Shown here: positions 1 through 8,168 of the stretch, piece after piece
Position numbering within the stretch: the first letter of the stretch is position 1
Layout of the letters: every line of letters begins with the position of its first letter
Origin: a virus
Strand: one strand, 5' to 3'
Length of the DNA stretch: 64,000 bases
IMG/VR virus record: IMGVR_UViG_3300037755_000476
Notes under the pieces: generated by a model
What the model saw: the letters and a program-made list of their open reading frames with translations, nothing else
Told to the model about the DNA's origin: nothing
Databases searched by the model: none
Program-made: the position numbers and the translations under genes

Positions 1-299
1 AAGGGCTTTGCCCCCTTCCCTGCGGAATTACAGGATAATTAAAGGTTTTAACGCCTTCCATACCTATAGAGTTTATAACGCTTGTTTGCGCTAGGTAAGA
101 TTGCAGTATTTCAATGAACTTGTATTGATTCGTCCAACACTTGCGATTTTGCTCGGTGTTATGCAGACCCTAGCGGTTACTTGTACATGACCTACTTTAT
201 TCGGGTTGCACTTTCACGTTATGCTAGCTATACACATACGCCTGTTTTATAATATCGCTTGTAAAGAACGTGTTGTACAGCGATTCGCCAACAACACCC

Positions 300-307
300 C
301 AAACATA
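300..307 (-). promoter_or_regulatory. Bacteroidota -7 promoter box (TATGTTTG), pointing out of the window
   Basis: Reverse complement of caaacata matches TAnnTTTG. Confidence 0.5.
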
Positions 308-984
308 CGGCAACTTTCCCGAAAAACAATAAAAAAATCGATGAAATGCAGGAAAATCCGATGAAATGTAGTCAAAGGGCGACTTAAGGATGCATGATGC
401 GGGAGCGGGCGGGCGTGGTAATATACTCCCGTGTACAGGCTGGGATACTACTTACGTGCGTATGCGGGAATATAGCCACGATAGGGGCAGGTCATGGCGT
501 TGGTAGATTGTGCCGGGGTGGGTCAAGGCCATCATAGACAGAATCTATAGCAGCAATAACTGCCCATAGACAAAACACATAGAAGGGCAATTTCCTACCC
601 TAATAAAGTTAGTTAAATACCTGTTTAACACACTTTACTTATACATAAACAAGCTATAAAAAACTGGCACAAGGATACACAAGGTATTCGTATAAGCTAT
701 TGGAACACAGATAGTTAGGCCATAGAAAAGCTAAAACTTTTGACAGAAAAATATCAGAACGTACCCCCGCCCCCTCGCAGAAATTCGATTTCCTTTTCGG
801 CCGCGAGCCCTTAAAATATACTATGACTTAAAGCGGTTTAAGCGAAATATCTCTGTGAATTTTTGAAAAATCATGCAAGTTTTAACATTCTTTAACAATG
901 ACGGATTTTATACCGAATTTTTGACCTAAAAATAGACCCAAAAACAGTTCTATTTTAATCTTTTTAAAAATAATTTGATATGAG

Positions 985-1020
985 TTTGGTTTGTATTATA
1001 ATTTTACTTATATTTGTACC
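985..1020 (+). promoter_or_regulatory. Bacteroidota sigmaA promoter for tRNA block 1 (36-bp element identical to 5001-5036)
   Basis: TTTG 985-988, 20-nt spacer, TATATTTG 1009-1016; exact copy at 5001-5036. Confidence 0.85.
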
Positions 1021-1046
1021 TGAACGATTAAAAAGAAACATTTTCA

Positions 1047-1127
1047 ATGTACTCAACAGTCATCATAGCGACAGTAATCAGAACCGGAGGTAAGGATAAA
1101 CCCTCGGGGAGGATTTTTATGCTGTAA
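1047..1127 (+). CDS. Leader peptide 1 (MYSTVIIATVIRTGGKDKPSGRIFML), putative attenuator
   Basis: 26-aa ORF between promoter and terminator; codons ACA, GTA, ATC, ATA, AGA, GGA, GAT, ATG match block 1 tRNAs. Confidence 0.8.
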   Translation: MYSTVIIATVIRTGGKDKPSGRIFML

Positions 1128-1153
1128 TGTCGATAGTACATTAAATTACACAT

Positions 1154-1186
1154 AAACCTTCTCCCTAAAAAGAGAGGGTTTTTTAT
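1154..1186 (+). terminator. Intrinsic terminator/attenuator 1
   Basis: Stem aaaccttctc/gagagggttt followed by a T run. Confidence 0.85.
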
Positions 1187-1276
1187 TGGCCTGTTAGTCT
1201 AGCTGACGAAAACTTGCCTAATAATAAGCCTTCCAACTAATAATCGCTATTATAAGCAGATTTAAGAGTACAATAT

Positions 1277-1450
1277 ATGAGCAGAACGTACAGAAAAAGT
1301 AGAAACGGCTTAAAATTTAGAGAAGGAAGGTATGTCGAAGGAGTTTTTTATAAGTGCCGGTGTGAATATTGTACTGGAATAGATAAGAAGATTCTTGAGG
1401 ATAAAATCCTTGACAAGGAAATGAAACAGGAGTGTAGCTTAATTGGTTAA
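1277..1450 (+). CDS. Small basic protein with CxCxxC (MSRTYRK..., 57 aa)
   Basis: Manually translated ORF; 3' end overlaps tRNA-Ile. Confidence 0.5.
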   Translation: MSRTYRKSRNGLKFREGRYVEGVFYKCRCEYCTGIDKKILEDKILDKEMKQECSLIG

Positions 1451-1501
1451 AGTACTCAGCTGATACCTGAGTGAGTGCAAGTTCGAATCTTGCCACTCCT
1501 A
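1428..1501 (+). tRNA. tRNA-Ile(GAU)
   Basis: Cloverleaf; anticodon arm ctcag-ctGATac-ctgag; TTCGAAT T-loop. Confidence 0.92.
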
Positions 1502-1507
1502 CATAAT

Positions 1508-1586
1508 GCAGAATTCGCATAGTCCGGTCGATTGCGCCTACCTTCCGAGCAGGATATCATCGTGGGTTCAAATCCCACATTCTGCT
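1508..1586 (+). tRNA. tRNA-Gly(UCC)
   Basis: Acceptor gcagaat/attctgc; loop ctTCCga; U73. Confidence 0.88.
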
Positions 1587-1599
1587 CTAATTAAAACAC

Positions 1600-1673
1600 T
1601 GCGGGGTGGACTGGAGAGGCTCCAGCTCAGTCTCATAAGCTGAATGACGTGGGTTCGATTCCCACTCCCGCAA
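1600..1673 (+). tRNA. tRNA with CAU anticodon (elongator Met or Ile2)
   Basis: tcagt-ctCATaa-gctga; lacks the three G-C pairs typical of initiator tRNA. Confidence 0.85.
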
Positions 1674-1690
1674 CTAACAAAACATTAAAT

Positions 1691-2053
1691 ATGAGTGAAA
1701 TAGAAGAAGAGTTAAGAGAATGTAAAACACACGGCCTTGTTTTATATAAAAAATATAGCGAAAGCGAAAATAAAAACGAGTATTCTTTCCGTTGTATGAA
1801 ATGTAGGTCTGAGTATTTAAAGAAAAAATATCAAGAGAGAAAGAAAAGAGCAATTGACTATAAAGGAGGAAAATGTTGTAAATGCGGATATAATAAATGC
1901 GACGCCGCTTTAGAGTTTCATCACTTAGACCCCTTTTCTAAAGACATAACGCCCTCAAAAACTTTAAATAGAAGTTGGGACAACTGTAAAAAAGAGTTAG
2001 ATAAATGTATATTAGTTTGCTCTAATTGTCACAGGGAAATACATAATAGATAG
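1691..2053 (+). CDS. HNH endonuclease with Zn fingers inside tRNA block 1
   Basis: CxxC pairs, LEFHH, CxNCHxEIH; ATG at 1691 (the longer ORF call overlaps a tRNA). Confidence 0.88.
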   Translation: MSEIEEELRECKTHGLVLYKKYSESENKNEYSFRCMKCRSEYLKKKYQERKKRAIDYKGGKCCKCGYNKCDAALEFHHLDPFSKDITPSKTLNRSWDNCKKELDKCILVCSNCHREIHNR

Positions 2054-2118
2054 TGTAGCTTAAAGGTAAAGTGCTTGTCTGTCACACAAGAGAACGGGGG
2101 TCAGTACCCCTACTAGCT
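2049..2118 (+). tRNA. tRNA-Asp(GUC), degenerate
   Basis: cttgt-ctGTCac-acaag; aberrant T-loop (gtcagta), acceptor mismatch; overlaps the HNH stop codon. Confidence 0.65.
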
Positions 2119-2163
2119 GCGAGTTTTTTGGAAGTGCTCTGAACTATATCAAAACTTCCGCAT

Positions 2164-2237
2164 GCTTCTCTGGCTGAATAGGAAATGGCACCTCACTTGT
2201 AATGAGGAGGATACGGGTTCGATTCCTGTGGGGAGCT
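2164..2237 (+). tRNA. tRNA-Thr(UGU)
   Basis: cctca-ctTGTaa-tgagg; TTCGATT T-loop. Confidence 0.92.
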
Positions 2238-2238
2238 C

Positions 2239-2343
2239 AACAGTACCTGAGGCACCTCTCTTTAAGAAGTGTCCCAGCTCAGGTCTTTTGTTTTAACAGT
2301 ACCCGAGCCACCTCTAGTCAGTATCTAAGTGCCCGGGTCTTTT
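2239..2343 (+). ncRNA. Two tandem copies of an unknown hairpin RNA motif (2239-2289, 2295-2343)
   Basis: Shared AACAGTACCYGAGSCACCTCT..AAGTG..GGTCTTTT with compensatory stem changes. Confidence 0.55.
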
Positions 2344-2399
2344 CCAAGGGAGTCAACTACGTGCGTTTTAAAACACAAGCTTAAAGGGCTCCCTTTTTT

Positions 2400-2472
2400 G
2401 CCCCTTTCGTCTAGCGGCTAAGGCTCTTGTTTTACATGCAAGCAATCGTAGGTTCGAGTCCTACAGGGGGTA
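2400..2472 (+). tRNA. tRNA-Val(UAC), irregular anticodon loop
   Basis: gcccctt/agggggt acceptor; cttg-ttTACatg-caag (8-nt loop); TTCGAGT T-loop. Confidence 0.75.
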
Positions 2473-2481
2473 CTAAAATAT

Positions 2482-2561
2482 GCAGGGGTAGCCACAGCAA
2501 TCTTCTAAATTGCTAAGTGTAATCGGAGCTGAAAATGTGGGTTCGAATCCCCCTCCCTGTT
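2482..2561 (+). tRNA. D-armless tRNA-Arg(UCU)-like RNA with long variable region
   Basis: gcagggg/tccctgt acceptor; only 7 nt before a 6-bp stem agcaat-ctTCTaa-attgct; 22-nt variable region; TTCGAAT T-loop. Confidence 0.65.
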
Positions 2562-2566
2562 CAAAT

Positions 2567-2636
2567 TGGGGTAAGCCTAGGTAGGTTAGCGGACCTTATA
2601 TGTCCGTGGGGACGGGTTCGATTCCCTCTACCCCAA
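2567..2636 (+). tRNA. tRNA-Ile(UAU)-like RNA with minimal D-arm
   Basis: tggggta/tacccca acceptor; cggac-ctTATat-gtccg; bulged T-stem. Confidence 0.6.
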
Positions 2637-2640
2637 CAAA

Positions 2641-2672
2641 TTTGGTAGTTACAAAAGAATTTCGTATCTTTG
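2641..2672 (+). promoter_or_regulatory. Bacteroidota promoter
   Basis: TTTG...TATCTTTG, 3 nt before ATG 2676. Confidence 0.75.
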
Positions 2673-2675
2673 ACC

Positions 2676-2960
2676 ATGACGGATTTTATACCTAAAAAGA
2701 CCCAACAGGAGATACACGAAATCAACTTCCAGAACGCCGAGGAGCTGTTACTGTACCACAAGTACCTGTACTACGAGCTCTCCAAGCCGATGGTAACCGA
2801 CCAACACTTCGACCAGCTCGACCAATATGCAAGAAGACTTTCCCAGTACGTATGCCCCAAGCGCTTTCCACCGGAGGAATACGTACACGAGACAATGGTC
2901 GGCTTTGATAAAAATCACCGGTTGTGGCCGAAAGTGAAAGAGAGATTTGGAATAAAATAA
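2676..2960 (+). CDS. Stand-alone NAD-dependent DNA ligase domain Ia-like protein
   Basis: HKYLYYELSKPMVTDQHFDQL resembles the LigA Ia motif (H-YY...P-ISD-EYD-L); no ligase core follows. Confidence 0.65.
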   Translation: MTDFIPKKTQQEIHEINFQNAEELLLYHKYLYYELSKPMVTDQHFDQLDQYARRLSQYVCPKRFPPEEYVHETMVGFDKNHRLWPKVKERFGIK

Positions 2961-2976
2961 AAAAATTGTATAAAAG

Positions 2977-3007
2977 TTTGTAGGTATCAAAAAAAGTTGT
3001 ATATTAG
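2977..3007 (+). promoter_or_regulatory. Promoter for tRNA block 2
   Basis: TTTG 2977-2980, 19-nt spacer, TATATTAG (variant -7 box). Confidence 0.7.
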
Positions 3008-3011
3008 CAGC

Positions 3012-3101
3012 ATGAAAACATTAAGCACATATAATTCCTTTTGGTATTCGAATTGCTCCGGCAATGTTGAAGGGGATTCCTATGTCTACAAACTCATATA
3101 A
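3012..3101 (+). CDS. Leader peptide 2 (MKTLSTYNSFWYSNCSGNVEGDSYVYKLI), putative attenuator
   Basis: 29-aa ORF; core NSFWYSNCS matches block 2 tRNAs (Ser x2, Asn, Trp, Phe, Cys). Confidence 0.82.
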   Translation: MKTLSTYNSFWYSNCSGNVEGDSYVYKLI

Positions 3102-3131
3102 CTATTTTCGTTTTTTGATTTTGATTCATTT

Positions 3132-3161
3132 AACCCTTCGTCTCCAAACGAGGGGTTTTTT
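3132..3161 (+). terminator. Intrinsic terminator/attenuator 2
   Basis: Stem aacccttcg/cgaggggtt plus T run. Confidence 0.88.
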
Positions 3162-3171
3162 GTTTTTATAC

Positions 3172-3255
3172 TGCAACGTAAAGCCAGTGGTTCTGGCAGA
3201 CTGTCTCTAAAACAGTTATTGTAAAAGGGGAGTGGTTCGATTCCGCACGGTGCAA
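3172..3255 (+). tRNA. Amber suppressor tRNA (anticodon CUA), type II-like
   Basis: actgt-ctCTAaa-acagt (anticodon 3207-3209); D-stem gccag/ctggc; long variable region; A73. Confidence 0.8.
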
Positions 3256-3259
3256 CAAT

Positions 3260-3344
3260 TAGTGGGTAGCGCAAAGGTTGCGAACGGGATTTGAACCCCC
3301 GGCTATCGGGTGACTGGTAAGGGTTCGATTCCTTTACCCACTAC
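3260..3344 (+). tRNA. tRNA-Ser(UGA)
   Basis: Loop ttTGAac; paired long variable arm; acceptor+T helix can be 13 bp. Confidence 0.75.
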
Positions 3345-3348
3345 AAAC

Positions 3349-3435
3349 AGAGGGGTGGCAGAGAGGCTTATTGCAGCAGGTTGCTAACTTGCCGAGGTAT
3401 AAACACTTCCGAGGGTTCAAATCCCTTCCCCTCTT
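3349..3435 (+). tRNA. tRNA-Ser(GCU)
   Basis: gcagg-ttGCTaa-cttgc; long variable arm. Confidence 0.92.
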
Positions 3436-3441
3436 CTAAAC

Positions 3442-3527
3442 GACTAGGTTGCCGTAGTGGCCGAACGGTCTGGGCTGTTAACCCAGTGGATAATATCCCA
3501 TCGTAGGTTCGAATCCTACCCTAGTCG
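3442..3527 (+). tRNA. tRNA-Asn(GUU) with long variable arm
   Basis: ctggg-ctGTTaa-cccag; variable arm tggataatatccca; G73. Confidence 0.88.
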
Positions 3528-3535
3528 CTTAAAAT

Positions 3536-3608
3536 GCTTCTCAGCACAATGGTGTGCAGCCGGTCTCCAAAACCGTGCAAGGGCAAGGTTCGATTCCTTG
3601 GGGTCGCG
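3536..3608 (+). tRNA. tRNA-Trp(CCA), mismatched acceptor stem
   Basis: cggt-ctCCAaa-accg; D-stem gcac/gtgc; T-arm intact. Confidence 0.75.
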
Positions 3609-3611
3609 CAG

Positions 3612-3719
3612 ATAAAAACAAGCTTATGCCGTGAAACGGTGTGATGGTCGCTGGATGAAAGCAACGCACTTAATGACCGTGCCCAAAATTGATAAAATTT
3701 CCAGATGCTTGTTTTTTAT
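3612..3719 (+). ncRNA. Unknown structured (possibly pseudoknotted) RNA between tRNA-Trp and tRNA-Phe
   Basis: Closing stem aaaaacaagc/gcttgttttt, GAAA-capped hairpin, ggtc/gacc, gcac/gtgc and ctgga/tccag pairings. Confidence 0.5.
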
Positions 3720-3793
3720 GGGGTTGTAGCTGAGGTGGTAATTAGCGCTGGGCTGAAAACTCAGAGACGGGGGTTCGAATCCCCCCTCCCCCA
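3720..3793 (+). tRNA. tRNA-Phe(GAA)
   Basis: ctggg-ctGAAaa-ctcag; two acceptor mismatches. Confidence 0.82.
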
Positions 3794-3847
3794 CTAAGAG
3801 TTGAAGGGGTATAAAAACAGTTCAACTCTTTTTCGTATATTTGTTAT

Positions 3848-4273
3848 ATGAAAATATGCACAACTTGTAATCAAAGTAAAACACTAGATAATTTTGATTT
3901 TAGAAATAAGGCTAAAAATAAAAGACGAGGCTCTTGTAAAAAGTGTCTTAAAGAGTATTACAGACTAAGGTATAAGAAAGTAGGTAAAGTAAAAGAACAA
4001 ATAAATGCGAGGGGTAAAAGGTGGAGAGAGTATTTATACAAGTTTGTAAATAGATATAAAAGATTGGTTGGGTGCTCTAAGTGTAAAGATAAGAGAGATT
4101 ATGTATTAGAATTTCATCACGTCAGGGATAAGAAAACAGAAATCTGTAGAGCTATATCTAGAGATTTCTCTATGTCTAACCTTAAAGAGGAGATGAGAAA
4201 GTGTGTAGTACTCTGCGCAAATTGCCACAAAGAGCTTCATTATCTAGAACGTTGCGGTACTCAAGAGGATTAG
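3848..4273 (+). CDS. HNH endonuclease with Zn fingers inside tRNA block 2
   Basis: CTTC/CKKC, LEFHH, LCANCHKELH; own TATATTTG promoter at 3836-3843. Confidence 0.88.
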   Translation: MKICTTCNQSKTLDNFDFRNKAKNKRRGSCKKCLKEYYRLRYKKVGKVKEQINARGKRWREYLYKFVNRYKRLVGCSKCKDKRDYVLEFHHVRDKKTEICRAISRDFSMSNLKEEMRKCVVLCANCHKELHYLERCGTQED

Positions 4274-4324
4274 GGGAACTGGCTACAAACTTGTTATTCG
4301 GAGGTTAAAGTCCTGTACGAAATT
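4251..4324 (+). pseudogene. Degenerate tRNA-Cys-like gene (loop ctACAaa)
   Basis: tactcaagagg D-region typical of Cys/Tyr tRNAs; weak acceptor and T stems; overlaps the HNH 3' end. Confidence 0.5.
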
Positions 4325-4395
4325 CTATAGCTTATGCCCCAATTCCATTTAAATTCTTTTTTGTACCTTTACAACTTAACATTAAAAATGTAACA

Positions 4396-4725
4396 ATGGC
4401 AAGAAGAACAACAAAAAACGGGCCGGGGGACAAGGACAAGAAAAAAAAATCCACCTCCAAAGCTAACGACACGATAAGCCCGTACTACGCAGCGGTAAAA
4501 TATGGAAGCTCTCTCGAAAAGAATGCGGCCAAGAAGTCCATGGCAGGATACTTCTCCGGCTCCCCTGCCAACAAAAGAGGAGAGTCCGAGAGCCAGCACA
4601 TGTCCAGAATGGCCAAAAAAGATACTATCCCCAGTGCCAGAAAAGCGAGGGGGGTATATCAGGCAGGTAACTTTGGTCCCAGCATCGGCAAAAAAGCATC
4701 CTCAACCGTAAAAAAGAAAAAGTAA
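4396..4725 (+). CDS. Lys-rich basic protein, unknown function
   Basis: 109-aa ORF with AT-rich upstream region. Confidence 0.65.
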   Translation: MARRTTKNGPGDKDKKKKSTSKANDTISPYYAAVKYGSSLEKNAAKKSMAGYFSGSPANKRGESESQHMSRMAKKDTIPSARKARGVYQAGNFGPSIGKKASSTVKKKK

Positions 4726-4726
4726 T

Positions 4727-4999
4727 ATGAAAAATCTATTCTTAGGACTTGCACTATTGATTTCGTCTATAGTGTTCTCACAGGAGCCCGTTCTGGACAG
4801 CATACAAGTTTTTAAACCTATGCCGGAGCCTGTACTGATAGCCACTATATACGAATACGAAACGTTCTTCGAGAAACTTACAGAAGTGTCCGACAGGACA
4901 GGTGCCAATGAGGTTATCTGCGTATTTTTCTACAAAGAGGATAAAGACTCTCCCCAAAAAACTCTGGTAAAAACTTTTATTAGAAAAAAACAACGATAA
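4727..4999 (+). CDS. Hypothetical exported protein
   Basis: N-terminal signal peptide MKNLFLGLALLISSIVFSQ. Confidence 0.65.
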   Translation: MKNLFLGLALLISSIVFSQEPVLDSIQVFKPMPEPVLIATIYEYETFFEKLTEVSDRTGANEVICVFFYKEDKDSPQKTLVKTFIRKKQR

Positions 5000-5000
5000 A

Positions 5001-5036
5001 TTTGGTTTGTATTATAATTTTACTTATATTTGTACC
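5001..5036 (+). promoter_or_regulatory. Promoter for tRNA block 3 (identical to 985-1020)
   Basis: TTTG...TATATTTG 5025-5032; exact 36-bp repeat. Confidence 0.85.
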
Positions 5037-5039
5037 ATC

Positions 5040-5117
5040 ATGAAAACAACACGATTTGTTGCGGTACGCAACTTACATACACAGCTACTAGAGCAACCGG
5101 AAATAATCGTCTGGTAG
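5040..5117 (+). CDS. Leader peptide 3 (MKTTRFVAVRNLHTQLLEQPEIIVW), putative attenuator
   Basis: 25-aa ORF; core RNLHTQLLEQPE matches block 3 tRNAs (Pro, Glu, Gln, His, Leu-UAG, Arg-ACG). Confidence 0.85.
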   Translation: MKTTRFVAVRNLHTQLLEQPEIIVW

Positions 5118-5159
5118 GGATAGGTATGGTGTGATGTAAGAAACTTATATTATCGTATT

Positions 5160-5194
5160 AAGCCTCCCCGGAAACGTGGGGGCTTTTTTATTTT
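5160..5194 (+). terminator. Intrinsic terminator/attenuator 3
   Basis: aagcctcc..gaaa..gggggctt plus T run, directly before tRNA-Pro. Confidence 0.88.
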
Positions 5195-5268
5195 AGGGGA
5201 GTGACAAAATTGGTGACGTGCCGGCCTTGGAAGCCGGAGATATGTAGGTTCGAGGCCTACCTCCCCTA
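5195..5268 (+). tRNA. tRNA-Pro(UGG)
   Basis: ccggc-ctTGGaa-gccgg. Confidence 0.9.
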
Positions 5269-5316
5269 CAAAGAGACGTTTGGCCGTTTAACTCTTTAAA
5301 AAACAATGGCCCTAAT

Positions 5317-5389
5317 GCTACCATCGTCTAAATGGTCAGGACACAAGACTTTCAATCTTGAAATCGGGTTTCGATTACCCGTGGTAGTA
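5317..5389 (+). tRNA. tRNA-Glu(UUC)
   Basis: caaga-ctTTCaa-tcttg. Confidence 0.92.
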
Positions 5390-5399
5390 CGAATATAAT

Positions 5400-5470
5400 T
5401 GGAGTATGATGTAGTGGTAACATGGTTGGTTTTGAGCCAACTCTCGGAGGTTCGACCCCTTCTGCTCCAA
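5400..5470 (+). tRNA. tRNA-Gln(UUG)
   Basis: gttgg-ttTTGag-ccaac; U1-A72 acceptor. Confidence 0.9.
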
Positions 5471-5477
5471 CTAACAT

Positions 5478-5551
5478 GGTGTCATTGTTGTAAACGGTGA
5501 GCATAGTAGGTTGTGACCTTGCAGGTCTCGGTTCGAATCCGAGGTGACACA
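5478..5551 (+). tRNA. tRNA-His(GUG)
   Basis: gtagg-ttGTGac-cttgc; G-1 encoded. Confidence 0.9.
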
Positions 5552-5558
5552 CATATTT

Positions 5559-5640
5559 ACCGGAGTGACGTAAAAGCGAATGGCAGAGTATCTTGGCTTA
5601 GACCCAAGGGTTTTTGTGGGTTCGAGTCCCACCTCCGGTA
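5559..5640 (+). tRNA. tRNA-Leu(UAG), expanded D-region and short variable loop
   Basis: cttgg-ctTAGac-ccaag; accggag/ctccggt acceptor. Confidence 0.82.
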
Positions 5641-5645
5641 CAAAT

Positions 5646-5716
5646 ACGCCCGTAGTTCAGCGGAAGAATACCAAGCTACGAACTTGGAGACGGGGTTTCG
5701 AATACTCCCGGGCGTT
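5646..5716 (+). tRNA. tRNA-Arg(ACG)
   Basis: ccaag-ctACGaa-cttgg. Confidence 0.92.
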
Positions 5717-5854
5717 CTATACCAATTTCGTACTATTGGGCGTCTTGAAAGAGAGGGCGTCCTTTATCTTTGAATCCTTCCTTCTGTACAGCCTCGCTAC
5801 CTTTTTATTGGGGTCGGAGGCCTTTTCCGATATTTTATGTTTTCTGTAGTTCAT
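5717..5854 (-). CDS. Small basic protein (MNYRKHKIS...KIKDALSFKTPNSTKLV, 45 aa), convergent on tRNA block 3
   Basis: Manual translation; stop codon abuts the tRNA-Arg 3' end. Confidence 0.5.
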   Translation of the reverse strand: MNYRKHKISEKASDPNKKVARLYRRKDSKIKDALSFKTPNSTKLV

Positions 5855-5891
5855 AGTTGCAAGGTAATGATTTTTTTGTTATATTGTATTC

Positions 5892-6386
5892 ATGATAAAA
5901 GGATTTATATTACTCGCCCTTACACTGACCGTCTTCGGTTTCACCTTCGACCACGGCCCCATTAACTACGTCCAAGAACAAAAGATGGGAAGGCCCCACG
6001 TAGAGGCTCGACTACTGAAATACTTTAATGAGCTGGACTCTATCTACGTCTCCAAAGGCATCGTAATAGGCTACTCCAAGGTATCCAGCATACAGAGTAT
6101 GGACTCACTCCCGTACGACCCGGTGTTGCAAGGAAAGTCTTTGGAAGGCCTGTATAATAAGCACACAAATCAAGTGTACATAAACACCTATCAATTGGAT
6201 GCCTTTTTTAAGGGCAAGTACAAAGAGAAGATTTTGCTTATAATGGCACATGAGGTAGGCCACTCACAAGGTATGGGCCACTCTAATGACACCACTTCCA
6301 TAATGCACTACAGTAGTAAGTACGTTTTGGCCCTGCTGGATAACAATAAAATTGAGGACCTTGTGAGCGAGATGTATTTAAATTGA
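5892..6386 (+). CDS. Secreted matrixin/metzincin-type zinc metalloprotease
   Basis: HEVGHSQGMGH (HExxHxxGxxH), Met-turn SIMH, signal peptide. Confidence 0.85.
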   Translation: MIKGFILLALTLTVFGFTFDHGPINYVQEQKMGRPHVEARLLKYFNELDSIYVSKGIVIGYSKVSSIQSMDSLPYDPVLQGKSLEGLYNKHTNQVYINTYQLDAFFKGKYKEKILLIMAHEVGHSQGMGHSNDTTSIMHYSSKYVLALLDNNKIEDLVSEMYLN

Positions 6387-6492
6387 CATTTTTAGCCTTT
6401 GATATCTTCGGCCCAAATTATTTATACTATTCCTTCTCTTCAAAGTTCTACCCCTCTTCGGGGGGGAGGTTCTATAAGTATTACTTATGTAG

Positions 6493-6552
6493 TAAGTAAC
6501 TACTATATAAGTACCTATTAAATATTTACTACTTTATTAAGTAACTACTATA
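6493..6552. repeat. 15-bp direct repeat TAAGTAACTACTATA x2 in an AT-rich non-coding tract
   Basis: Copies at 6493-6507 and 6538-6552. Confidence 0.7.
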
Positions 6553-7084
6553 ATAGTATTGAAACGATATCTAACGGGGAACGCTACGCTTTAAACAAAA
6601 ATAAGGGTTTTCCTTATATTGCTTTGTCGTAACGCTCGTTCATTTGTCTTGAAACTGACTCTGAACGGGTGTGGGTATATCTCCCAAGGGTGTTTAGTCC
6701 TCTACCTCCCTGTTGCTAACACTAACACGACCCCCGCGGGCCCAAAGATGCTTGGCCCCCGTCAACTGGCCCCATGCTACAAGGAATACTTGTTTTAAGA
6801 CGGTCGGATACTTCGGGCAGTCCTACTACCTCTTTCTCCTTGTTCCCCTAGCTTTTTAAGTGGTCTGGGTAAATTGTCACTCCGTAATGTCAATAAGTAC
6901 AAATATACAAAAAATATTCTAATCACCAAACAATACCACCATTATTTTTATAAAAAATTCACAGTCCCTCATAACTCCCTGATTTACTGCACGATAAAAA
7001 ATAATTTAAAAATAATTACCATAAAGTTTGTTGAAACCGATTATTTGTTCTATATTTGCTGTGAACGAAAATAGAAGAGAGGTA

Positions 7085-7222
7085 TGAAACTAATAATAAT
7101 GGCCCCCACAGTAGACCTTTACCTCCGACAGGGCCTTGCCCACGAGCTTAGGGACATGGAGCTCGGGAGCTCGGCAGTGGTTGCCAAACTAACATATTTG
7201 TTAATAGAGTTCAAGAACTAAT
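7085..7222 (+). CDS. Small hypothetical protein (MKLIIMAPT..., 45 aa)
   Basis: ORF downstream of the promoter at 7027-7058. Confidence 0.4.
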
Positions 7223-7242
7223 GATTATAAGTTTTAAAATAA

Positions 7243-7968
7243 ATGAATTTCAATATGTATAAAGATAAAAAATTTATAGGTTATGTACGTGCCAGTACCG
7301 AGTCTCAAAGGGGGGGTATTGGATTGGAGGTCCAAAGGGAGTCCATTAATAAGTTTATAGCTCAGTATGGGGGAACAGTCGTGGCTATAGAGGAAGAAAT
7401 AATCTCCGGAGGAGCGGCAGTTCGGGACGGATTTGACCGTGCCCTGCAACTCTGTAAGTTCCACGGAGCTGTACTTATCGTCCACCGTATCGACAGGCTG
7501 TCCCGCGCCGGCTTCATGACCATAGCGAGGCTGGACGAAGAAGGCATCCCTTTTATTGAAGCCGACTCCCCTCACGATACCACCTTCTCAAAACACATCA
7601 AGTTCCTAGTCGCCAAGGAAGAGAAGGATAAGACAAGGCAGCGTGTAAAGGATGCTTTGGGACAAATTAAGGGAAATATCAATAGGGACGGTTTTCACAT
7701 CACTAAGGAAGGCAAAAGGATAACGTCCTTAGGTAATCCCCAGAACCTCTCGGATGAGGCTAGGGAGCGTTCCAAGAGGACTAGGAGGGCCAAGGCCATA
7801 GCCGACCAGAACAACGTCAGGGCGTACGCTATGGCGTCTAGGATGAGGTCGGAAAACTCTTTGAAGCAGATTGCGGATGCGTTGAACAAAGGGGGCTTTA
7901 AGACTTCAAGGGGAAACAGGTTTTACCCCATTCAGGTGTCCAATCTTATAGACCTGTACGAGAAATGA
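7243..7968 (+). CDS. Serine recombinase (resolvase catalytic domain plus short Recombinase domain)
   Basis: GYVRAST..Q, LIVHRIDRLSR, SLKQIADALN..GFKTSRG. Confidence 0.9.
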   Translation: MNFNMYKDKKFIGYVRASTESQRGGIGLEVQRESINKFIAQYGGTVVAIEEEIISGGAAVRDGFDRALQLCKFHGAVLIVHRIDRLSRAGFMTIARLDEEGIPFIEADSPHDTTFSKHIKFLVAKEEKDKTRQRVKDALGQIKGNINRDGFHITKEGKRITSLGNPQNLSDEARERSKRTRRAKAIADQNNVRAYAMASRMRSENSLKQIADALNKGGFKTSRGNRFYPIQVSNLIDLYEK

Positions 7969-8168
7969 GGGTAGATAGGTACACACTTGACGAATTTTCG
8001 TCCGCGTTCATGGAGGCTCTTGAGGAGGTGACCAGTTTTGAGGACGGGCAGGACTTTATAGATTACTCTTTGGACATAGTGTCAAGGGCCAAGGAAAAGC
8101 TTGCCCGTGGGTCAGCGGACGGTCTTGGCAGAATATGCCGGGGTGGGGCCGGAAAGACGGAAGTATAA
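7965..8168 (+). CDS. Hypothetical protein
   Basis: ATGA overlap with the recombinase stop. Confidence 0.55.
   Translation: MRVDRYTLDEFSSAFMEALEEVTSFEDGQDFIDYSLDIVSRAKEKLARGSADGLGRICRGGAGKTEV

Follow-up and report, generated by a model that had tools for sequence, protein, structure and literature searches.

The answers proposed for why phages carry tRNA genes, and for when these are expressed, include matching codon bias, replacing a degraded host pool and escaping tRNA-cleaving defences. The locus described here poses the question in a concrete form: what is the role of a promoter, a very short open reading frame and a transcription terminator that stand immediately before a block of phage tRNA genes? 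We analysed a 64,000-nt stretch of viral DNA (IMG/VR record IMGVR_UViG_3300037755_000476; hereafter, the window). It belongs to a Callevirus-like phage of marine Flavobacteriia, and its closest named relatives are Cellulophaga phages phi38:1, phi40:1 and Calle_1-3 (Callevirus, Pervagoviridae) and Maribacter phage Panino. Positions 900-5800 of the plus strand hold 20 credible tRNA genes in three blocks, as listed from ARAGORN run at a low threshold. Block 1 contains Ile-GAT, Gly-TCC, Met-CAT, Asp-GTC, Thr-TGT, Val-TAC, Arg-TCT and Ile-TAT; block 2, Sup-CTA, Ser-TGA, Ser-GCT, Asn-GTT, Trp-CCA and Phe-GAA; and block 3, Pro-TGG, Glu-TTC, Gln-TTG, His-GTG, Leu-TAG (a long-arm tRNA whose anticodon loop was read by eye) and Arg-ACG.

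All three blocks are preceded by a Bacteroidota-type promoter, an ORF of 25-29 codons and a terminator, and the order within a unit is always the same: promoter (TTTG, 19-20 nt, TAnnTTTG), ORF, G+C-rich hairpin, U run, first tRNA. The first tRNA lies directly 3' of the U run in units 2 and 3, and about 240 nt 3' of it in unit 1. Unit 1 (1047-1187, plus strand, before block 1) comprises a leader ORF encoding MYSTVIIATVIRTGGKDKPSGRIFML (1047-1127), a segment 2, as defined below for unit 2, at 1106-1113, and a terminator at 1154-1181; unit 3 (5040-5192, plus strand, before block 3) comprises a leader encoding MKTTRFVAVRNLHTQLLEQPEIIVW (5040-5117) and a terminator at 5160-5185. The blocks, which span 1428-5717, are grouped by the first base of the codon that their tRNAs read: block 1 serves codons starting with A or G, block 2 those starting with U together with AAY and AGY, and block 3 those starting with C together with GAR. 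In phi38:1, Panino and Cellulophaga phage phi4:1 the tRNA genes are grouped likewise.

We describe unit 2, the focus of the analysis, from its 5' end; all of its features lie on the plus strand. The predicted promoter (2977-3007) consists of a -33 TTTG at 2977-2980, a 19-nt spacer and a -7 box, TATATTAG, at 3000-3007. This motif occurs 12 times in the window and 2.4 times in shuffled sequences, and the unit-2 promoter is conserved 5' of the unit-2 leaders of relatives. The leader ORF (3012-3101) starts with ATG at 3012, has 29 codons (MKTLSTYNSFWYSNCSGNVEGDSYVYKLI) and ends with TAA at 3099-3101. Since its ATG lies 4 nt after the -7 box, a spacing kept in the unit-2 leader of every lineage, the mRNA, with a start site predicted from that box, would be leaderless or nearly so. 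Such a start would be ordinary in this phage, because protein genes at 2676 and 35876 share the spacing of 3-4 nt between box and ATG; if transcription were instead to start 3' of the ATG, the leader ORF would be untranslated. As a side observation, two identical 36-nt promoter copies precede leaders 1 and 3 (985-1020 and 5001-5036), and in phi38:1 a near-identical promoter is common to all three units and breaks RNA-seq assemblies at these places.

Within the leader, ten codons for Tyr-Asn-Ser-Phe-Trp-Tyr-Ser-Asn-Cys-Ser (3030-3059) form what we call the regulatory run on the basis of the codon counts given below. Segment 1 (3033-3042) lies inside it and spans the Asn, Ser and Phe codons and one further base, the first of the Trp codon. 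Segment 2 (3068-3078) resembles the 3' arm of the terminator and can take as partner either segment 1 or the terminator 5' arm, which is segment 3 (3132-3141; loop 3142-3147). Segment 4 (3148-3167) is the terminator 3' arm (3148-3157) followed by the U run, which extends to 3167. The terminator hairpin has 10 pairs, 5 of them G-C, and the tail TTTTGTTTTT. The tRNA block (3172-3794) begins 4 nt past the U run with Sup-CTA (3172-3256) and continues with Ser-TGA (3261-3344), Ser-GCT (3349-3436), Asn-GTT (3442-3528), Trp-CCA (3536-3609) and Phe-GAA (3720-3794). A gap of 4 nt is too short for a promoter, so block 2 can be transcribed only by read-through of the terminator; a terminator directly abutting the first tRNA is also found in unit 3 and in relatives.

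An earlier note, made from the letters alone, had proposed that this region is an attenuator of the trp or phe type, in which a helix between the Asn-Ser-Phe codons and a downstream segment competes with a helix between that segment and the terminator. The first helix is present exactly as described: 3033-3042 (AAUUCCUUUU) pairs with 3069-3078 (GAAGGGGAUU) over 10 bp, of which 7 are Watson-Crick and 3 G-U, and this 1:2 helix appears together with the terminator in the minimum free energy (MFE) fold of the naked leader (RNAfold). The second, of 7 bp with one G-U, also exists, between 3068-3074 (UGAAGGG) and CCCUUCG, with its terminator-arm half properly at 3134-3140 and not at 3132-3140 as had been written. 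When the leader was masked to 3056, mimicking a ribosome stalled near the Trp codon, and the terminator 3' arm was omitted, the MFE fold contained this 2:3 helix (RNAfold). In full-length folds the terminator is better by 5.4 kcal/mol (-23.0 against -17.6 kcal/mol with 2:3 enforced), and with the antiterminator the weaker structure the choice between them would be kinetic. The 2:3 duplex is stronger in the window than expected from shuffled sequences (-11.0 kcal/mol vs a shuffle mean of -6.3, p=0.03), as it is in four other lineages (p from 0.000 to 0.017). The 1:2 duplex, taken in the window alone, is not significant (p=0.13), and this helix may in part be a by-product of pyrimidine-rich Phe and Ser codons and a purine-rich segment 2. 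Of the sister units of the window, unit 3 has a weak antiterminator (p=0.5), and no significant 1:2 helix was seen in units 1 and 3, where it is weak or absent.

Our reading is that unit 2 is a ribosome-mediated, leader-peptide transcription attenuator that gates the phage tRNA block and provides feedback on tRNA supply, and we give it a probability of about three in four. Transcription would begin from the promoter at 2977-3007 and the leader ORF would be translated at once. If the Tyr, Asn, Ser, Phe, Trp and Cys codons at 3030-3059 were decoded quickly, the ribosome would proceed towards the stop codon at 3099, segment 2 would be covered or would re-pair with segment 1 behind the ribosome, and the terminator at 3132-3157 would form, halting RNA polymerase 4 nt before the first tRNA. 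If they were decoded slowly, the ribosome would stall on segment 1, and segment 2, left free, would pair at once with the newly transcribed 5' arm of the terminator; the terminator would be blocked and the polymerase would enter the tRNA genes. One sensor would thus integrate six amino-acid families. Given that the product is the very set of tRNAs that would relieve the stall, the circuit would amount to negative feedback on the supply of those tRNAs, and the phage probably makes the block-2 tRNAs only when ribosomes decode those codons slowly. Translation of the leader, ribosome stalling and the read-through response are here predicted from the sequence.

The geometry places limits on which stalls could act. 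The expected size of the ribosome footprint suggests that only stalls on about 3030-3047 would free segment 2, and that a stall on the last regulatory codons (3051-3059) would cover part of it, so that the earlier idea that stalling on the run exposes segment 2 would hold for its first part and fail for its last. At the other end, segment 2 ends 24 nt from the stop codon in the window, compared with 7-17 nt in other unit-2 lineages. A ribosome terminating at this distance would leave segment 2 uncovered, and the 'off' state in the window must then use the 1:2 helix; in units 1 and 3 of some lineages segment 2 lies near enough to the stop codon to be covered by the terminating ribosome.

If the leaders gauge the decoding of codons read by the tRNAs behind them, their codons should match their own blocks. 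Leader 1 has 16 of 25 codons cognate to its own block, and 3 and 2 cognate to the other two; in leader 2 the own block accounts for 10 of 28 codons and the other two for 8 and 2, and in leader 3 the own block accounts for 10 of 24, with 8 and 3 for the other two. Several of these assignments (TCC, GTC, ACC, GGT) need extended wobble. All three leaders rank within the top 1-5 of 240 small ORFs. For leader 2 the strength of the match depends on which tRNAs are counted. With the present-day tRNAs, 10 of its 28 codons are cognate, the longest run is 4 and the shuffle p is about 0.04. With the ancestral set, defined below, the run extends from 4 to 10 codons, and 11 of the best 12 codons are cognate, a value reached by 2 of the 16,904 twelve-codon stretches of the phage's long ORFs and, among the 240 small ORFs, by leader 2 itself and no other. 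The match is specific to the reading frame: in the window, frame 0 of leader 2 holds 10 in-set codons and the two remaining frames 4 each, and relatives with a complete tRNA set have 12-19 such codons in frame 0 against 1-8 in the alternative frames.

The ancestral set follows from the history of two tRNAs. Sup-CTA is 90.6% identical to the tRNA-Tyr(GTA) of phi38:1, from which it differs at the first anticodon base, and in relatives its position is occupied by Tyr-GTA; judged by sequence, the suppressor is a mutated tRNA-Tyr, which places the leader's four Tyr codons in the ancestral sensor set. The second is tRNA-Cys. In relatives it directly follows Phe; in the window an HNH endonuclease gene stands in that place. 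The Cys-ACA that the earlier note had counted in the gated block (4251-4325) is a low-score ARAGORN call that overlaps the end of the HNH gene and is unlike the tRNA-Cys(GCA) of relatives, and a BLAST search of the window with the relatives' tRNA-Cys gave no match; we rejected it as a false call and kept Sup, Ser, Ser, Asn, Trp and Phe. The window thus has neither a tRNA-Tyr(GTA) nor a credible tRNA-Cys, though leader 2 carries four Tyr codons and one Cys codon, which leaves 5 of the 10 core codons without a phage tRNA. The proposed run of six amino acids is real, in frame and matched to its block, with its Tyr and Cys codons as sensors of the ancestral set only. As to the suppressor itself, genome-wide recoding of TAG was considered as its purpose and discarded, because translation with code 11 leaves the long ORFs uninterrupted and TAG is the stop codon of 13 out of 61.

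A similar lag is seen in block 1. Contig L014 (93-99% identity to the window across shared parts) is without the Asp, Thr, Val and Arg tRNAs of this block, yet its leader 1 is almost unchanged and keeps their codons, which indicates that the leaders are conserved sensors lagging behind recent gain and loss of tRNAs. These recent gains and losses coincide with HNH endonuclease genes. Two such genes lie within the tRNA blocks of the window (1649-2053 and 3848-4273), and the tRNA differences between the window and L014 (Asp/Thr/Val/Arg, Ser-GCT and Cys) are at or beside HNH insertions. One of these tRNAs, tRNA-Arg(TCT) (2476-2563), has an odd shape, was found only at the lowered ARAGORN threshold and scores 28.9 bits, just under the Rfam gathering score; its cognate codon, AGA, is present in leader 1.

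The anatomy described so far would equally fit a switch whose signal is amino-acid supply, that is, the charging level of the tRNAs and not their abundance, with starvation of the host for any one of the six amino acids prompting the phage to alter its tRNA output; to a ribosome, a missing tRNA and an uncharged one are indistinguishable. We regard this as unlikely, though it is the alternative that fares best. Extra tRNA does not relieve amino-acid starvation, which leaves the arrangement with no obvious benefit, and the leaders follow the tRNAs of their blocks and not any biosynthetic grouping of amino acids.

Feedback on tRNA supply, our preferred reading, also has to account for what is conserved among relatives. 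Units of this kind are found in phi38:1 (L001), Calle_1 (L016) and Panino (L003), in four metagenome contigs, L005/L006 and L014 (IMG/VR), L066 (TARA) and L100, and in phi4:1 (L101), a Cellulophaga phage of 146 kb from another genus (Lightbulbvirus). Scans of IMG/VR with DNA patterns of the leaders gave mostly chance matches without tRNAs, and the real ones were only phi38:1, Calle, L005/L006 and L014; scans with the neighbouring serine recombinase, as a single sequence and as an alignment, returned the same few contigs again. The basic 'structural protein' encoded between blocks 2 and 3 is of low complexity and was unsuitable as a query. ORFs homologous to leader 2, of 24-32 codons, occupy the same place in L014, L005, phi38:1, Calle_1, L066, L100 and phi4:1. 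Their peptides begin MKTLSTYNSFWYSNCSGN in the window, MKTLSTYNSFWYSFCNN in L005, MKTNMTYNNFSWYSNCSFSSYN in phi38:1, MKTTNTYNSFWYSSCNFY in L066, MKINFSTYNCFWYSSNYS in L100 and MKTNYCTYNNSNWSFSY in phi4:1. The order of residues varies by lineage and the set (Tyr, Ser, Asn, Trp, Phe, Cys) is constant, and the relatives' leaders hold 11-16 consecutive codons from this set, in frame 0 only. Their block 2 consists of exactly the tRNAs for these residues (in L100 and phi4:1 some were taken from reading by eye or from annotation and not from ARAGORN). The match between leader and block holds for blocks 1 and 3 of relatives too. Block 1 of Panino has an extra tRNA-Ala, and its leader has three Ala codons vs one elsewhere.

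The alternative helices are likewise maintained. The terminator 5' arm finds its best partner at the 3' end of the regulatory run in all lineages, in unit 2 at 7-24 nt before the stop codon. Segment 2 and the terminator 5' arm read UGAAGGG and CCCUUCG in the window, ACGAAGGG and CCCUUCGU in L005, UCGAGAGG and CCUCUUGG in phi38:1, GAAGAGG and CCUCUUC in L066, ACAGGGCCUA and UAGGCCCUGU in L100 and, as read by eye, ACAGGAUC and GAUCCUGU in phi4:1. Segment 2 thus covaries with each lineage's own terminator across six lineages, a result obtained from duplex calculations for each lineage, since the MAFFT alignment of unit 2 mis-registers the terminator arms of L005, phi38:1 and L100. The duplex of a leader with its own terminator has a mean of -13.6 kcal/mol vs -9.4 kcal/mol for cross pairs, and the two most divergent terminators pair with their own leaders at -19.7 and -14.4 kcal/mol and with other leaders at -11.9 and -10.6 kcal/mol, respectively, or more weakly. 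The 1:2 helix on the Asn-Ser-Phe(-Trp) codons, of 10-11 bp, is found in the window, L014, L005, phi38:1 and L066, and in a weaker, interrupted form in L100; in L066 a C-G pair has become U-A, and phi38:1 builds the helix from another pair of sequences. All structural elements of the trp-type geometry that had been proposed are therefore present, with the alternative helices kept by compensating changes in relatives.

These comparisons bear on a simpler explanation, a constitutively leaky terminator or insulator that sets a fixed, low level of tRNA transcription, the short ORF having no sensing role. Assembled contigs from RNA-seq of phi38:1 infection contain the region, break at the repeated promoters and span the terminators, which means either some read-through, as a leaky terminator would give, or DNA carry-over; depth figures disagree between runs, and the contigs speak for presence and not for levels or ends. 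A terminator of fixed leakiness would leave unexplained the in-frame runs of 11-16 cognate codons in relatives, the correspondence of three leaders with their own blocks and the covariation of segment 2 with the terminator arm, and we consider it improbable, more so than a response to amino-acid supply. Less probable again is that the ORFs encode functional micro-proteins, or that the terminated leader is a trans-acting small RNA, their adjacency to tRNA genes being incidental. Leaders 1 and 3 are indeed annotated as hypothetical proteins in phi38:1, and trans-acting attenuator RNAs and peptides are known from Sinorhizobium. However, it is the composition of the peptides that is kept and not their sequence or length, their C-terminal halves are constrained at the RNA level, and a role in trans would supplement attenuation and not substitute for it. 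Finally, direct sensing of tRNA by the leader RNA in the manner of a T-box, with the codon run acting as untranslated specifiers complementary to the anticodons of the downstream tRNAs, is very improbable, given that the codons match only in the frame that a conserved ATG and stop define, that neither a Stem I nor a T-box motif is present, and that no T-box or other Rfam cis-regulatory family was detected at E<=1 in window positions 1-8000.

How does unit 2, read as an attenuator, compare with known ones? In positions 1-8000 of the window, neither the Rfam Trp, His, Leu, Thr and Phe leader families nor the T-box (RF00230) gave a match at E<=1, and an Rfam search of L005 and L101 returned tRNAs only and no T-box. 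Judged from its sequence, unit 2 nevertheless has every feature by which a leader-peptide attenuator is recognized, except that the genes under its predicted control are six tRNA genes and not biosynthetic or synthetase genes. Like trpL of E. coli and Salmonella, and the his, leu and phe leaders, it has a short leader ORF with regulatory codons in segment 1, helices 1:2, 2:3 and 3:4 and an intrinsic terminator that immediately precedes the first structural gene, and, as in E. coli trp, an antiterminator weaker than the terminator, with a kinetic choice between them. Unlike these, it is encoded by a phage, would gate tRNA genes in place of enzyme genes, would respond to six amino-acid families and has a predicted leaderless start from a -33/-7 promoter. 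The ilvGMEDA and ilvBN leaders (Ile, Val, Leu) and the thr leader (Thr, Ile) also combine codons for several amino acids in mixed runs within one leader, but they serve two or three amino acids of one pathway, whereas here six to eight codon families are set by the tRNAs of the block. In the pheST attenuator with its pheM leader peptide, too, a part of the translation apparatus responds to how fast the codons cognate to it are decoded; there the product is the synthetase for one amino acid, and here the products are tRNAs. The T-box riboswitch shares a choice between terminator and antiterminator set by the state of a tRNA, but it binds uncharged tRNA directly, without an ORF, where unit 2 has a codon-matched ORF.

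To our knowledge, all described leader-peptide attenuators control amino-acid biosynthesis or synthetase genes, and what would be new here is the control of tRNA genes and the number of codon families integrated. A search of the full-text literature, covering few subscription journals, found no account of tRNA genes preceded by a leader peptide or an attenuator, and neither does the transcriptome paper on phi38:1 (PMC5335546) describe such control. If our reading is correct, the phage has a direct gauge of decoding capacity and uses it to adjust its tRNA supply by feedback, and leader-peptide attenuation extends from metabolic genes to genes for RNAs of the translation apparatus. The question of phage tRNAs would also become simply testable in a cultured system, Cellulophaga baltica with phi38:1, for which transcriptome data exist, and the unit would give engineers a small natural component for reporting on the supply of chosen tRNAs.

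A broader view, towards which we lean slightly less than away, is that these promoter-leader-terminator-tRNA cassettes are mobile, on-demand homeostats of the tRNA pool in phages of marine Flavobacteriia. Ribosome speed would report on the host supply for every codon family, as when the host has been shut off or anticodon nucleases have acted; replacement tRNAs would be switched on only upon shortage, and off once phage tRNAs had filled the pool. If true, viral tRNA genes would be under a general level of control that has so far gone undescribed, given cassettes in both Callevirus and Lightbulbvirus. The sequences suggest that cassettes move between unrelated flavobacterial phages. In phi4:1 they lie at 4781-4912, 5700-5886 and 7487-7642, in the order block 3, block 1, block 2.

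Some further elements were noticed around the units. A 110-nt element without an Rfam match lies between tRNA-Trp and tRNA-Phe of block 2 (3610-3719); a 10-bp long-range closing stem (AAAAACAAGC with GCUUGUUUUU) encloses several small hairpins, and its fold z-score is only -1.6. A tRNA-like element, called neither by ARAGORN nor by Rfam in L005, stands just after the unit-1 terminator in L005 (3735-3812), phi38:1 (L001, about 3296-3372) and L066, and is not found in the window; the L005 copy combines an acceptor-like stem and a T arm containing GGTTCGATACC with a 9-bp arm that has a 3-nt loop and stands at the position of the anticodon arm. Lastly, leader 3 of the window ends in TGG TAG GGA TAG (5112-5125), after which the frame is open through the terminator hairpin at 5160-5185. 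A phage suppressor that brought ribosomes into the unit-3 terminator could in this way link block 2 to block 3.
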